From: an uncultured Bacillota bacterium
Lineage (GTDB): Bacteria; Bacillota_I; Bacilli_A; ML615J-28; CAG-313
NCBI GenBank assembly: GCA_946611195.1
Contig: CAMODB010000004.1
Coordinates: forward strand, 33 to 64,032
Length of the DNA stretch: 64,000 nt
Direction: 5' to 3'
Below the pieces are notes generated by a model. The model saw nothing but the letters and a program-made list of their open reading frames with translations, was not told the origin of the DNA and did no database searches. A program made the position numbers and the translations under genes. How positions within the stretch are numbered: position 1 is the first letter of the stretch; the number at the start of each line of letters is the position of its first letter. Below are positions 35,982 through 39,137 of the stretch, piece by piece.

Positions 35982-36338
35982 TTAAGATAGTATTATACTA
36001 GACAAAACGTCGTTTAATTTTGGTATATCATTTAATATTACTTCATATACTATCGTATAATCAGTTTTACCATAATCATGTACAATTCTATTTCTAAAAC
36101 CTATGATATCATTCCAACTGATATTGTTATATTCGTTTTTAAACGAAGCACTCAATTTTTTTATATTTTCGCTAATTTGAATTAGTCTAAACAATATAGC
36201 ATCAATTAACTGATCATCTTCAATAAATTCTTCATATGAAATATTGCCTGTGTACTTCAATATTTTATGAATATCTTCTAAAATTATATTGATATAATAT
36301 TTATCGTCTTTTGTATTATCCATATATCTTAATACCAT
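35982..36338 (-). CDS. hepT: HepT (DUF86/HEPN) toxin of a type VII TA system
   Basis: RNRIVHDY matches the Rx4HxY HEPN motif. Overlaps the upstream MNT gene by 23 nt. Confidence 0.8.
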   Translation of the reverse strand: MVLRYMDNTKDDKYYINIILEDIHKILKYTGNISYEEFIEDDQLIDAILFRLIQISENIKKLSASFKNEYNNISWNDIIGFRNRIVHDYGKTDYTIVYEVILNDIPKLNDVLSSIILS

Positions 36339-36798
36339 CTTTCATTATTTCATTTATTAATTCAAAATTATCTTTTAAATCGTGGAAGCGAATGACATCG
36401 ACATTTTTGTTTAATGCTTGATGTAGTTTTTCGACTAATCCTACAAATTTTAAACCTGTAAGAGTAGTATCAATACATAGATCTACGTCACTATCTTCTT
36501 TTGCGTAACCTTTTGAGTATGAACCAAATAAATAACAAAAAGATATGTCCGCTTTGTATTGTTCAAGCACACTTAGAATAATTACTTTTAGTTTTTCTAA
36601 AGAATATATCCCTTTAGTCTCATTCATCTCATATTTTTCAATTAATAAATCCATTATTTTTTGATATTTTATATTTGCTTCGTCAGTACTTGCTTCATAT
36701 CTTATATATGTTCTTAACGGAATTCCGACAGATGTTGAAGCTTCTATTTGCGTTATACCAAATGATTTTCTTAATTCTTTTAAATTCATTTTGCTCAC
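36316..36798 (-). CDS. mntA: MntA nucleotidyltransferase antitoxin with an N-terminal XRE-type HTH
   Basis: GSYSKGYAKEDSDVDL matches the GSx10DxD NTase motif. N-terminal LRKSFGITQIEASTSVGIPLRTYIRYE is the HTH. Confidence 0.8.
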   Translation of the reverse strand: MSKMNLKELRKSFGITQIEASTSVGIPLRTYIRYEASTDEANIKYQKIMDLLIEKYEMNETKGIYSLEKLKVIILSVLEQYKADISFCYLFGSYSKGYAKEDSDVDLCIDTTLTGLKFVGLVEKLHQALNKNVDVIRFHDLKDNFELINEIMKDGIKIYG

Positions 36799-36960: not shown

Positions 36961-36990
36961 GACATTTTACTTAATTGTAAAATGTCGATT
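36961..36990 (-). terminator. Hairpin terminator downstream of the RES ORF
   Basis: GACATTTTAC / GTAAAATGTC stem, with TTTTTT following on the minus strand. Confidence 0.5.
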
Positions 36991-37219
36991 GTTTCTCTTT
37001 GGCAAAGTTATACATTTTGATACAAAACGTTTGCCACTTGGTTCAAATCGTTTGCTACTAGTTTTTATATGCTTTTGCACTAATGAAAATGCTAGATAAG
37101 GATGATTATATAAAAGCTACCCAGCGATTAAGTTGAGTAGCTTTGTTTTATTTTCTAAACCTAGAATAAGATAAATCTAGAACACGACATTTTTCTTTGT
37201 AATCTTTTGTTTCAAAATA

Positions 37220-37807
37220 CTATTCCTCAACCCCTACTTTAGCTAAAGGGAGTAAACAATTACTGTAATATTTTGGAAAAGGCGTATAGTCGTATGTGTC
37301 TGCACATACAATTCTATTACAATTCTTTCCAGGTAAATTCCCCATTCTTAAACGAACTTGGCTTATTGATAATTTTCTAAAGCTTTTTTCAAAGAAAAGG
37401 AAGTTTACGCCACCTGGATTAGCAACAGATTTATAAACTAAACAATCAAGTCTTAATTTTATTATTCCATTAATGACGTTTATTTCTTGCTCATTGAATG
37501 CAATTCCGTTTTCGTTTTTTTCTAATATTTTATGTATTTCTTTTCTTGCTGTATCAATCTAATCGGACCAATAAGATAGTTTTTGGTTAGGAAAAAGTGT
37601 GGAGTATCTATTGTTAACGTTGGATAATCTCAAATTTCCTTCATTTAATTTAAAAACATTTTTGTTGCAAAATGATGGATTGAATTCAACACATCTAAAA
37701 AAATTGAATTCATCAGTAACGTATACAGGAAATTTGTTATGCTTATAAACATTTCTTTCCCAATCATGATTAGGAAATAATGGTGCACTGATTAATTTGC
37801 CACCCAC
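37220..37807 (-). pseudogene. RES-domain toxin interrupted by an in-frame TAG (37559-37561)
   Basis: FFRCVE and NNRYS supply the Arg region, TARKEI the Glu, and YKSVANPGGVNFLFF the Ser block. Together these match the R-E-S layout. The 82 and 112 codons are in one frame, separated by TAG. The start is GTG. Confidence 0.55.
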
Positions 37808-37839
37808 TAATTAAAATCTTCTTTTATTCCTTATATCAA

Positions 37840-38697
37840 TTATTCTTTGTTATTAAATTTGTTAATACCAATCATATTGTAAAAATCCTTTAAAAATCTC
37901 TCTACATTTGAATCAATCATCCTATATAAAAACTCATCTTCGAATTTAGATAATTTATCCTTAGAATAATATGCTTCAGCGATAGATGTAGCCATAGCAC
38001 CTATTGTATCTGTATCTCCTCCTACCGCAACACAGTTTCTTATAGTATCTTCTATGCTATTAGATATTAAAAAACAATATATAGCTATAGGAACAGATCC
38101 TTGACATGAACTATTAAACTTATAATTTTTTACTAACTCATTAAAATCTAAATATTCTATTTCTTTATAATATTTATTTACCATTATTTTCTTTATCTCT
38201 TCTTTAGTAGAACCATGAAGAGATAAAAATATAGATAACGCAATAGCTTCTGCACCTTTAATTCCCTCAGGATGATTATGAGTAACTTCTGATACTGCTC
38301 TAGATAGAATTGTTACTTCTTGAACACTTCTAGCTATCCAACCAACCGGTGATATTCTCATTGCGCTACCATTACCATAAGAATTATATGGTTTTAAAAT
38401 AGACTTACTTTCATATGATTCTTTACACCAATTATAAAACATTCCACCAAAGCCAATATTCTTATGTTTATTCCAAGTATTAATAAATTCTATACATAGA
38501 TCTTTTTTTATTCCTTCTAATGATTCTTTAGAATAATTAATAGGATAATGTTTCATTAATACTTTCATTACCGCAAGAGTAAGAATAGAATCATCTGTCA
38601 TCCTCATTCTAATATCATATATATTAAAATCTTTTGTTTTACATGGATGAAATTCATAAATAGAACCAACCATATCTCCAATAATTGCGCCTAACAT
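37840..38697 (-). CDS. ADP-ribosylglycohydrolase (ARH/DraG family)
   Basis: N-terminal MLGAIIGDMVGS and C-terminal GGDTDTIGAMATSIAEAYY are ARH hallmarks. Confidence 0.75.
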   Translation of the reverse strand: MLGAIIGDMVGSIYEFHPCKTKDFNIYDIRMRMTDDSILTLAVMKVLMKHYPINYSKESLEGIKKDLCIEFINTWNKHKNIGFGGMFYNWCKESYESKSILKPYNSYGNGSAMRISPVGWIARSVQEVTILSRAVSEVTHNHPEGIKGAEAIALSIFLSLHGSTKEEIKKIMVNKYYKEIEYLDFNELVKNYKFNSSCQGSVPIAIYCFLISNSIEDTIRNCVAVGGDTDTIGAMATSIAEAYYSKDKLSKFEDEFLYRMIDSNVERFLKDFYNMIGINKFNNKE

Positions 38698-38886
38698 CTA
38701 TTTTTTATTTAAAAGATTGATTGAATCCAAAACGTTTGATTTAATCAATCCTTTAGTAACTCCTTTCGTTTTAATTAAATATTTATCTAATCCAAATTCA
38801 TAATAGTCAAATAATCTATCATCTAATATGATAAAGTTATCTACTGCCATATCTTTATTATCACAATCTTCTAAATAGTCTATGAT
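38698..38886 (-). pseudogene. 3' remnant of a HAD-like gene (…FIILDDRLFDYYEFGLDKYLIKTKGVTKGL…)
   Basis: A short open frame ends in TAG directly abutting the ARH ATG. It has no plausible N-terminus, and the frame closes at 38887. Confidence 0.3.
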
Positions 38887-39033
38887 TCCTCAGCATATGA
38901 CTATTTTAAAAATTGCGAAGAACAAGGATATATTAAAAACTTAAAGTTCAATAATAGTTACATAGAACTTAGAAAATCTATCATTGAGTATAAATTTCAC
39001 TAATACTTTAAAGCAATCATAAACACACAAAAA

Positions 39034-39068
39034 GTCTTTATAACAGTGAAAATTATAAAGACCTTTTT
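39034..39068. terminator. Bidirectional rho-independent terminator
   Basis: A 10-bp stem: GTCTTTATAA pairs with TTATAAAGAC. T runs follow on both strands. Confidence 0.65.
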
Positions 39069-39137
39069 AATAATGGAAAAACGACTTGTTCTTTATACTA
39101 TTTAAAACAAAAACAATTTGAAGAAATATTTTAACTT

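Follow-up and report, generated by a model that had tools for sequence, protein, structure and literature searches.

An ADP-ribosylglycohydrolase gene beside a decayed RES-like gene in a mosaic locus of an uncultured Bacillota bacterium

Organization of the locus

The DNA analyzed here, which we call the window, is a stretch of 64 000 nucleotides from contig CAMODB010000004.1 of an uncultured Bacillota bacterium. All the features of the locus are on the minus strand. In the direction of transcription these are the 3′ remnant of a gene of the HAD_SAK_2 phosphatase family (38698–38889), an intact gene for an ADP-ribosylglycohydrolase (ARH, or ARG; 37840–38697), a spacer of 32 nt (37808–37839) and a pseudogene of a short RES-like family (37148–37807). 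A promoter-like site, TTTCCA-16-TATAAT with 10 of 12 matches in a consensus scan, is found at 39052–39079 and could drive the HAD remnant together with ARH. Consensus scanning also places a terminator-like hairpin 3′ of the pseudogene, at 36961–36986.

The ARH gene encodes a protein of 285 amino acids. In a Pfam profile search it matches PF03747 with an E-value of 1.9e-34 and a score of 120.1 bits (cut-off 26.2), residues 1–245 covering positions 3–280 of the 287 in the profile, and in PHROGs it matches phrog_6572 (E 2.6e-49). The sequence matches in the PDB are ARH3, DraG and Lmo0067, and there is weak similarity to the DraG and Tri1 models of NCBIfam. Both expected motifs, GAIIGDMVGS and GGDTDTIGAMA, are present, and an alignment shows that GAIIGDMVGS and VGGDTDTIGAMA match the corresponding segments of human ARH3. 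Acidic metal-site motifs G-D-x-x-G-S and G-G-D-T-D-T are thus located at the two termini, and the protein is putatively active. The profile match and the two motifs confirm the earlier identification of this gene as an ARH, which had been made by inspection of the sequence. The closest relative (P0122) is 90% identical, and the dN/dS ratio is 0.14 when compared with the ARH of the locus that contains it, L014. The gene is intact and under purifying selection.

Immediately upstream, the HAD_SAK_2 remnant corresponds to residues 101–162 of a 163-aa protein, i.e. its last 62 codons. A tblastn search with the 163-aa protein of L014 aligns to 38889–38704 of the window with 85% identity (E 9e-30). 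The residual open reading frame runs from 38698 to 38850, and its TAG abuts the ATG of ARH. The sequence-only reading was right to regard this upstream gene as a truncated remnant; however, it also took the abutment as a sign of decay, and that cannot be maintained. The same TAG/ATG junction is present in L014 at 2830/2831, and it is thus the native arrangement of the operon.

Comparison with L014 also reveals how the locus was put together. L014 has the gene order HAD_SAK_2–ARH–HAD_SAK_2, with abutting genes. By blastn the homology to L014 starts at 38890 of the window and ends at 37814, while homology to a RES-like locus, L002, begins at 37812. Two unrelated cassettes are therefore butt-joined at about 37813, within the spacer. 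Blastn and an alignment of the junction show that the spacer contains a degenerate copy of about eight codons, those with which the HAD_SAK_2 gene 3′ of ARH begins in L014. What the window retains is thus a 1.08-kb piece of the HAD_SAK_2–ARH–HAD_SAK_2 cassette, fused to the start of the RES-like gene. Both HAD genes of the cassette have been lost, leaving the 62-codon remnant, and no relics of a type IIG enzyme, its methyltransferase or other L014 genes were found elsewhere in the window.

The short RES-like family

Intact members of the family to which the pseudogene belongs are ~257 aa in length (246–288 aa). Weak matches to the RES profile PF08808 were obtained for 29 of 52 intact members at E ≤ 1, with a best E-value of 2.7e-6. 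Most members are below threshold (family member 1, for example, reaches 14.3 bits where 23.2 are required), and two relatives carry a precomputed PF08808 match. The fold was examined using an AF2 model of an intact relative (P0002; pLDDT 89, pTM 0.86), and not of the broken copy in the window. The best match of this model in a Foldseek search of the PDB is MbcT (6fkg; E 1e-4, prob 1.00). NatT (8qnq), Res (9r35 and 6gw6) and ParT (6d0i) are among the other top matches, with ART domains of diphtheria toxin interleaved between them. As judged from the model, the family is RES-like, with a predicted ART fold. MbcT, Res and NatT are all NAD+ degraders.

Four residues, R60, R67, E90 and S168, are invariant in all 52 intact members. 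From their order and motif context they would correspond to the canonical catalytic residues of RES proteins. The family resembles the RES–Xre type of system (MbcT–MbcA, ParT–ParS and NatT–NatR) in the weak PF08808 matches of its members, in the best matches of its predicted fold, in the expected order of its invariant Arg, Glu and Ser, and in a serine motif, DCLAYKS..GG.NFLFFE, that is similar to the canonical one. At the level of sequence its membership of the RES family is nevertheless remote. When the family was compared with a thin alignment of three canonical RES proteins using hhalign, the serine motif alone was aligned, with an insignificant E-value of 0.054. The HMMER profile of the family did not reach the canonical proteins; a search of 1.84 billion representatives gave 131 matches, all of them members of the family or fragments thereof. 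The family alignment used as a profile against PDB sequences returned only spurious matches to protein G.

The family is sequence-isolated, comprising about 130 clusters at 50% identity, and occurs in gut Firmicutes and also in Methanomassiliicoccales archaea. A search of 60 related genomes for a RES-like protein found the copy in the window alone. The intact relatives have no match in PADLOC or PHROGs, and the family is absent from PADLOC-DB 2.0.0.

Lesions in the RES-like copy

The pseudogene was delineated by read-through translation and alignment with intact relatives of 260 aa. It begins with GTG at 37807, 32 nt past the stop codon of ARH, where the relatives use ATG. A RES-type frame had been placed at this distance downstream of ARH from the outset, and the predicted fold and weak Pfam matches of the intact relatives bear this out. 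The frame in the window has no Pfam match itself even at E ≤ 10, either whole or as two pieces, and likewise none in NCBIfam.

There are three lesions, namely an internal deletion and two nonsense codons that each arose by a single-base change. The first is an in-frame TAG at codon 83 (37559–37561), where relatives have a serine encoded by TCG or TCA (TCG in the closest). It falls between the conserved arginine (R60/R67) and glutamate (E90) residues, just as the sequence-only reading had described, but while that reading was correct in taking the toxin gene to be interrupted there, this TAG is not the sole lesion. A second in-frame TAG at 37220–37222 (codon 196; GAG or GAA, encoding glutamate, in relatives) had been mistaken for the end of the gene, whereas the frame continues past 37220 to a TAA at 37148–37150. 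The third, identified by alignment to relatives, is an in-frame deletion of 123 nt (41 codons) with its junction at 37534–37535. The deletion takes out the core HG..FWAYDDxTSTFP..IIDG, two predicted β-strands, and eight of the 30 invariant residues of the family. The divergence from a related locus, L005, also changes at this point, with dS going from 0.54 to 0.10.

In total, nine of the 30 invariant residues are missing from the pseudogene, along with 11 of the 39 near-invariant ones, compared with a median of two and a maximum of six in intact members. Its dN/dS ratio is 0.26–0.29, a modest rise from the value of about 0.08 found between intact genes, which indicates that the decay is recent. 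From its lesions, the RES-like copy in the window is dead. There may have been a brief functional association of ARH with the RES-like gene before this recent decay.

Genomic contexts of the two genes

How are the relatives of each gene arranged in other genomes? For the RES-like family we analyzed 82 related loci, which come from metagenomes as well as from other genomes. In 40 of these a restriction–modification (R-M) gene is an immediate neighbour, and an accessory place in an R-M operon is the commonest setting of the gene. The typical order is hsdM–RES-like–hsdS with overlaps of 4 nt, and in the closest relatives the RES-like gene is the last gene, 2 nt behind a type IIG restriction endonuclease/methyltransferase. 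Further defence neighbours are AbiH, DpnII, AbiEii, McrB-like and similar genes. The genes upstream encode HsdM, HsdS, type IIG enzymes, DUF4238 proteins and a variety of unrelated products. None of the loci examined has an Xre/DUF2384 antitoxin gene upstream of the RES-like gene, the position taken by ARH in the window, and neither a conserved small partner nor a conserved upstream antitoxin was found in them. The family thus departs from the RES–Xre type (PF08808 with DUF2384/Xre) in lacking that gene, in being ~100 aa longer with extensions at both the N- and C-termini, and in being embedded in R-M operons, while the copy in the window is moreover a pseudogene. The R-M partner is absent from the window, and no R-M relic remains there.

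The ARH gene has a different native context. Besides L014, the order HAD_SAK_2..ARH is found in L088, and further arrangements of the type AAA/M41..HAD_SAK_2..ARH are alike. The elements that carry the ARH cassettes of the relatives also have genes for FtsK, DnaB and Macro proteins, and nearby accessory genes encode an AAA+/M41 IetA-like protein and an RNA ligase. The native partners of ARH are HAD-family phosphatase-like proteins, with phage relatives (phrog_1818, phrog_6572). HAD_SAK_2–ARH–HAD_SAK_2 is a mobile-element cassette, and the combination HAD_SAK_2–ARH recurs on such elements.

The two contexts do not overlap. There is no ARH within ±4 kb of the RES-like gene at any of the 82 loci (by tblastn; the best E-value with an ARH HMM is 0.29), and no RES-like gene near ARH in the five loci of its nearest relatives, a sample drawn from >7700 homologues. 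The search of other genomes for ARH–RES pairs that the sequence-only reading had itself proposed therefore found the adjacency only here. Its central suggestion, that ARH occupies the antitoxin slot and neutralizes the RES protein by reversing a modification, is contradicted by these counts on the criterion that it had set for its own refutation. Its description of a decaying module that kept the hydrolase is half right: the locus is decaying, more heavily than had been claimed, but ARH and the RES-like gene are not a toxin–antitoxin pair. Across the class, canonical PF08808 proteins were found in four of 301 genomes, none related to the family or adjacent to an ARH, a sample too small to address ARH–RES pairing in general. 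We found nothing specific in the literature on RES proteins inside R-M operons or on ARH–RES pairs.

Interpretation

ARH and the RES-like frame are very probably accidental neighbours, a cassette fragment having been butt-joined to a gene of the R-M-accessory type that is now dead. The locus is a mosaic scar, and the island that contains it, next to ssrA, is decaying. A rearrangement has joined the 1.08-kb fragment of the HAD_SAK_2–ARH–HAD_SAK_2 cassette to the start of the RES-like gene at about 37813, and the RES-like copy would have decayed following the loss of its R-M partner. ARH would act alone or with distant partners as a remover of ADP-ribose, in a conflict system of the ARG-plus-phosphatase type, and would not serve as an antitoxin here.

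Could the association be young and confined to this lineage? After a chance fusion, ARH (with the HAD phosphatases) might have been retained for processing a product of RES-type enzymes, for instance ADP-ribose derivatives such as ADPR-1″-phosphate, giving protection or a counter-defence on a mobile element. A preprint on antiphage aRES proteins reports that these make ADPR-1P and that phages answer with phosphatases (10.64898/2026.01.28.702374). The phage-related phosphatase-like partners of ARH, and the FtsK, DnaB and Macro genes that share elements with its cassettes, are in keeping with such a role. Yet there is no co-occurrence elsewhere, at either the 82 RES-like or the five ARH loci. 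Both HAD genes have been lost from the window, and since the RES-like gene is dead there is nothing to counter in cis. We regard this reading as very improbable.

Still less probable is a genuine ARH–RES toxin–antitoxin module of a new type, in which ARH reverses ADP-ribosylation by the RES protein, as in DarTG and Tre1–Tri1, and the decayed copy has kept its antitoxin. It has in its favour that the two genes are on the same strand and 32 nt apart, and that ParT, a RES toxin that is a protein ADP-ribosyltransferase, is among the fold matches. Moreover, ARH-type immunity proteins are known for ART toxins of the R-S-E clade, which Imm-ARG strictly accompanies (PMC3482391). The locus is indeed similar to DarT–DarG, Tre1–Tri1/Imm-ARG and DraT–DraG in that a hydrolase of the ARH superfamily adjoins an ART-fold gene. 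But those pairs are conserved across genomes, whereas the adjacency seen here is unique, with each gene having its own conserved and different context, and the spacer holds a relic of the start of another gene. Most characterized RES enzymes (MbcT, Res, NatT and aRES) destroy NAD+ rather than modifying a macromolecule, and this could not be reversed by an ARH. Neutralization of a RES toxin by an ARH that serves as its enzymatic antitoxin would have been a new toxin–antitoxin logic; the evidence speaks against it here, and the locus is therefore not worth pursuing for that purpose.

It is equally implausible that faulty assembly or binning of the metagenome created the junction, the nonsense codons or both, and that the true genome lacks the adjacency and the broken gene, even though the source genome is a MAG that is 65% complete and in 34 contigs. 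An identical 8858 bp, with no mismatches and the same junction and lesions, is present on an ENA scaffold of different size, and there are up to three contig blocks with identical ARH. The junction and lesions are known from assemblies alone, of which the second may share the host population of the first. Three independent lesions, including a clean in-frame deletion of 123 nt, and many substitutions at conserved sites are unlike sequencing error, and the sequence flanking the locus on either side is collinear with the island. Finally, the RES-like gene might be expressed if TAG were read through or recoded, whether through a suppressor tRNA or through a reassigned code of the element. Two in-frame TAGs in one gene, and a further in-frame TAG that separates the HAD remnant from ARH, might suggest this, but it can be rejected with near certainty from stop-codon usage and the deletion. 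TAG is an ordinary stop in the window, where it ends 10 of 53 long ORFs, core operon genes among them; L014 natively has the TAG/ATG abutment as well; and a read-through protein would still lack 41 core residues, eight of them invariant.

With accidental juxtaposition as the preferred explanation, what might the RES-like family do in its native setting? Two known systems offer analogies. Osterman et al. (bioRxiv 10.64898/2026.01.28.702374) describe aRES as stand-alone antiphage RES proteins of 300–600 aa, with RES and PF18870 (HEPN/RES-NTD1) domains, that lie in defence islands beside R-M and Abi genes and degrade NAD+ to ADPR-1P. The RES-like family is similar in having no cognate antitoxin and in being placed among defence genes, but it differs in its length of ~257 aa and in the absence of PF18870, for which none of 52 members scanned gave a match. 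NAD+ depletion upon infection in the manner of the aRES proteins is the likely functional analogy for the family. The second system is the anticodon nuclease PrrC, whose gene lies within the type Ic R-M locus EcoprrI, together with other effectors embedded in R-M operons (PMC3710099). Relatives of the RES-like gene are similarly found inside type I operons or next in line after a type IIG enzyme gene, and their product might possibly be controlled by the restriction complex as PrrC is. They differ in that the effector would have an ART/RES fold, where PrrC has an ABC-ATPase plus HEPN, and there is no R-M partner in the window. By analogy with aRES or PrrC, the family would be an antitoxin-less, NAD+-targeting effector accompanying R-M systems.

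A more specific version of this is doubtful, though less so than any of the alternatives above. The family might be a hitherto undescribed suicide effector guarded by the R-M system, consuming NAD+ and requiring no protein antitoxin, kept latent through the translationally coupled HsdM/HsdS or type IIG complex and fired once a phage blocks restriction. The window copy would then have been inactivated three times because its R-M guard was lost in the rearrangement by which the ARH fragment arrived, leaving an uncontrolled toxin.

With the compact RES-like family, which is found repeatedly in type I and type IIG restriction operons of gut Firmicutes, the genes embedded in R-M systems gain a candidate NAD+-targeting effector. 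For ARH, the closest parallel is with the ARG-centred host systems coupled to phosphatases (Iyer et al. 2022, PMC9503650 section 3.8), for which a role against ADP-ribosylation by viruses is predicted. The nearest relatives of our ARH are likewise tightly linked to HAD_SAK_2, with no ART in the operon, while they differ in lineage (AT-rich Firmicute-like MAGs) and in accessory genes, and in the window both HAD genes are gone. The recurrent HAD_SAK_2–ARH cassette on mobile elements fits these predicted conflict systems.

An intact ARH gene beside a dead RES-like gene

All features of the locus lie on the minus strand. The ADP-ribosylglycohydrolase (ARH) gene at 37840-38697 is intact and encodes 285 aa. 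Its identification is borne out by matches to PF03747 (E 1.9e-34, 120 bits against a cut-off of 26.2) and phrog_6572 (E 2.6e-49), and the N-terminal GDxVGS and C-terminal GGDTDT motifs line up with the solved relatives, of which human ARH3, Lmo0067, MJ1187 and DraG are the closest by sequence. Compared with the orthologue in L014, the locus of the nearest relative, dN/dS is 0.14. Directly 5′ is a truncated ORF of 50 codons (38698-38850), whose TAG abuts the ARH ATG as previously described; the same abutment is present in L014.

The RES-like gene that follows is dead. Its frame starts at 37807, 32 nt past the ARH stop, with GTG replacing the ATG of its relatives. Searching 5.8 billion proteins recovered 245 such relatives, nearly all of 246-288 aa, with identities to the window copy of up to 71% (BLAST) or 86% (alignment). 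The sequence-only reading rightly reported an in-frame TAG, and placed it correctly between the Arg and Glu of the invariant residues, which run in the order R...E...S; yet it underestimated the damage, as alignment to relatives reveals three lesions. A first in-frame TAG occurs at codon 83 (37559-37561), where the closest relatives have TCG. A clean deletion of 123 nt (41 codons) between 37535 and 37534 removes the HG..FWAYDDxTSTFP..IIDG block. The stop codon of the earlier reading, the TAG at 37220-37222, is a second such TAG; this is in-frame nonsense rather than the gene end, replacing a GAG of the relatives and followed by 23 further conserved codons before a TAA at 37148-37150. With 52 intact members as reference, the window copy has lost 9 of 30 invariant positions (eight via the deletion, together with Y47C), and 11 of the 39 that are non-invariant and at least 90% conserved; among the intact members themselves, departures from these 39 number 2 at the median and 6 at most. 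Recoding of TAG is no explanation because it is an ordinary stop in this genome, terminating 10 of 53 long ORFs, core operon genes among them, and the deletion would be fatal to the protein regardless.

The dN/dS of the copy against its closest intact relatives is 0.26-0.29, compared with about 0.08 among intact relatives at larger distance, which fits recent inactivation. Against the closest intact gene, in locus L005, dS is 0.54 in the 5′ part and 0.10 in the 3′ part. The switch coincides with the junction at 37535/37534, so that what looks like a deletion may instead mark where two diverged alleles recombined. Broken copies of the family may be common, since a simple ORF caller found no full-length ORF away from contig ends in about ten of 70 genome loci (L052, L057, L064, L076-L081 and L084).

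A remote, ART-fold relative of RES

The earlier assignment as RES is supported at the level of the family. The window copy itself has no Pfam or NCBIfam match, and PF08808 matches 29 of the 52 intact members weakly (best E 2.7e-6), the majority below the gathering score. An AlphaFold2 model of one relative, P0002 (pLDDT 89, pTM 0.86), has RES toxins as its first PDB matches, namely MbcT (6fkg; E 1e-4, probability 1.00), NatT (8qnq/8qnl), P. putida Res (9r35, 6gw6) and ParT (6d0i), with diphtheria toxin ART domains interleaved among them. R60, R67, E90 and S168 are invariant across the intact members. An exhaustive HMMER search with the family profile gave 131 clusters at 50% identity, each a family member or fragment, and reached no canonical RES; hhalign of the family to three canonical RES proteins covered the Ser motif only (E 0.054). 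The family is thus RES-like with an ART fold, remotely linked to RES and not a certified PF08808 member. It is absent from PADLOC-DB 2.0.0, and most members fall under the Pfam RES threshold.

The two genes have separate native contexts

The sequence-only reading had proposed that the ARH is the antitoxin of the RES toxin, acting by reversing its modification. Its observations were correct, in that the ARH, the GTG frame with its TAG and the abutting ORF are all present, but the pairing is refuted on its own terms. Across 82 RES-like loci (70 from GTDB, one genome per species, and 12 from metagenome or genome records), none has an ARH within about 4 kb (tblastn E<=1e-3), and an unfiltered ARH HMM gave a best E of 0.29 on these loci. 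No Xre/DUF2384 antitoxin was found in the RES-like loci examined.

The neighbours are R-M genes instead, one being immediately adjacent in 40 loci. The most frequent order is hsdM (about 520 aa; N6_Mtase + HsdM_N), RES-like, hsdS (Methylase_S), the genes overlapping by 4 nt on each side; alternatives are DUF4238, RES-like, type IIG-like enzyme, and hsdS, RES-like, GIY-YIG/DUF4357. In the four closest relatives (L002, L005, L015 and L016; DNA identity 82-94% for L002 and L005) the RES-like gene is the last of an operon of HTH, MTase_II and type IIG REase/MTase (1331-1337 aa), after a 2-nt gap, and this last enzyme is of ResIII+Eco57I type. R-M wiring is seen in L022-L070 (e.g. L022:2424-5859), L033, L019 and L002. 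In one lineage (L007:5001-6385, L009:488-1872) a Barstar-family PF01337 gene lies 161 nt 3′ of the RES-like gene, in an island also holding DpnII, AbiH and an N6/N4 methyltransferase. Gut-sample MAGs of Methanomassiliicoccales archaea (L072-L075) contain members of 40-46% identity, suggesting cross-domain transfer; conserved upstream (245-aa) and convergent (497-aa) genes there have no Pfam match.

The ARH keeps different company. Around its nearest relative P0122 (90% identity) the order is AAA/Peptidase_M41 (IetA-like), HAD_SAK_2 (163 aa), ARH, HAD_SAK_2 (306 aa), and an RNA ligase lies close by. Further relatives occur as AAA/M41..HAD_SAK_2..ARH with LRR_5 genes, as FtsK..AAA/M41..ARH..DnaB..Macro, or solitary, and no RES-like gene is present in the five ARH-relative loci examined. 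The AAA+/Peptidase_M41, HAD_SAK_2, ARH cassette recurs (L014:978-4614, L085:2655-5852, L088:479-4661); its AAA+ protein is IetA-like by PADLOC (E 2e-19), and FtsK, DnaB, Macro, RNA ligase and small LRR_5 genes are found on the elements that bear the cassette. LRR_5 paralogues lie within the window's island too, and so the ARH fragment and these genes may stem from elements of one kind. JGI labels three ARH homologues (P0135, P0164 and P0180) 'type I restriction enzyme M protein'. Each is a PF03747 protein of 283 aa, and hsdM is absent from L085, the one context examined, so the label looks like a source annotation error.

A junction between two cassettes

By blastn, window 38890-37814 corresponds to L014 2638-3711 at 90% identity, and homology of the RES-like copy to L002 starts at 37812. 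Residues 101-162 of the 163-aa HAD_SAK_2 and the whole ARH are retained, and within the 32-nt spacer the first ~8 codons of the following HAD_SAK_2 gene survive in degenerate form. Elsewhere in the window, neither the type IIG enzyme nor any other L014 gene has left a relic. On these breakpoints and partial genes, the two genes in this assembly are pieces of two unrelated cassettes butt-joined at about 37813. Their adjacency is unique and secondary, and the locus is an ordinary mosaic scar. The junction lies in a variable island beside ssrA; an identical 8,858-bp stretch spanning the whole region, on an ENA scaffold of other length, argues against a one-off assembly error.

We suggest that the ARH has been orphaned from a mobile-element ARG-plus-phosphatase cassette, ARG being another name for the ARH family. 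Such cassettes are predicted to remove ADP-ribose adducts from an extrinsic enzyme (Iyer et al., PMC9503650), and ARH-type immunity is known for R-S-E clade ARTs only (PMC3482391). The RES-like family is not a RES-Xre toxin-antitoxin system (PMC2701414). It would rather be an antitoxin-less NAD+-targeting effector travelling with R-M systems, analogous in that role to aRES, the stand-alone antiphage RES-domain proteins (Osterman et al. 2026), and in riding with R-M systems to PrrC-type embedded effectors (PMC3710099). It is not aRES as defined, being too short and without the PF18870 domain. Apart from the scar, what is left is an uncharacterised RES-like family of modest interest, whose genes are embedded in R-M operons.

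Directly 3′ of the pseudogene is an intact MNT-HepT pair (35982-36798), whose nucleotidyltransferase has an extra N-terminal HTH_3 and whose promoter is a perfect TTGACA-16-TATAAT at 36837-36810.
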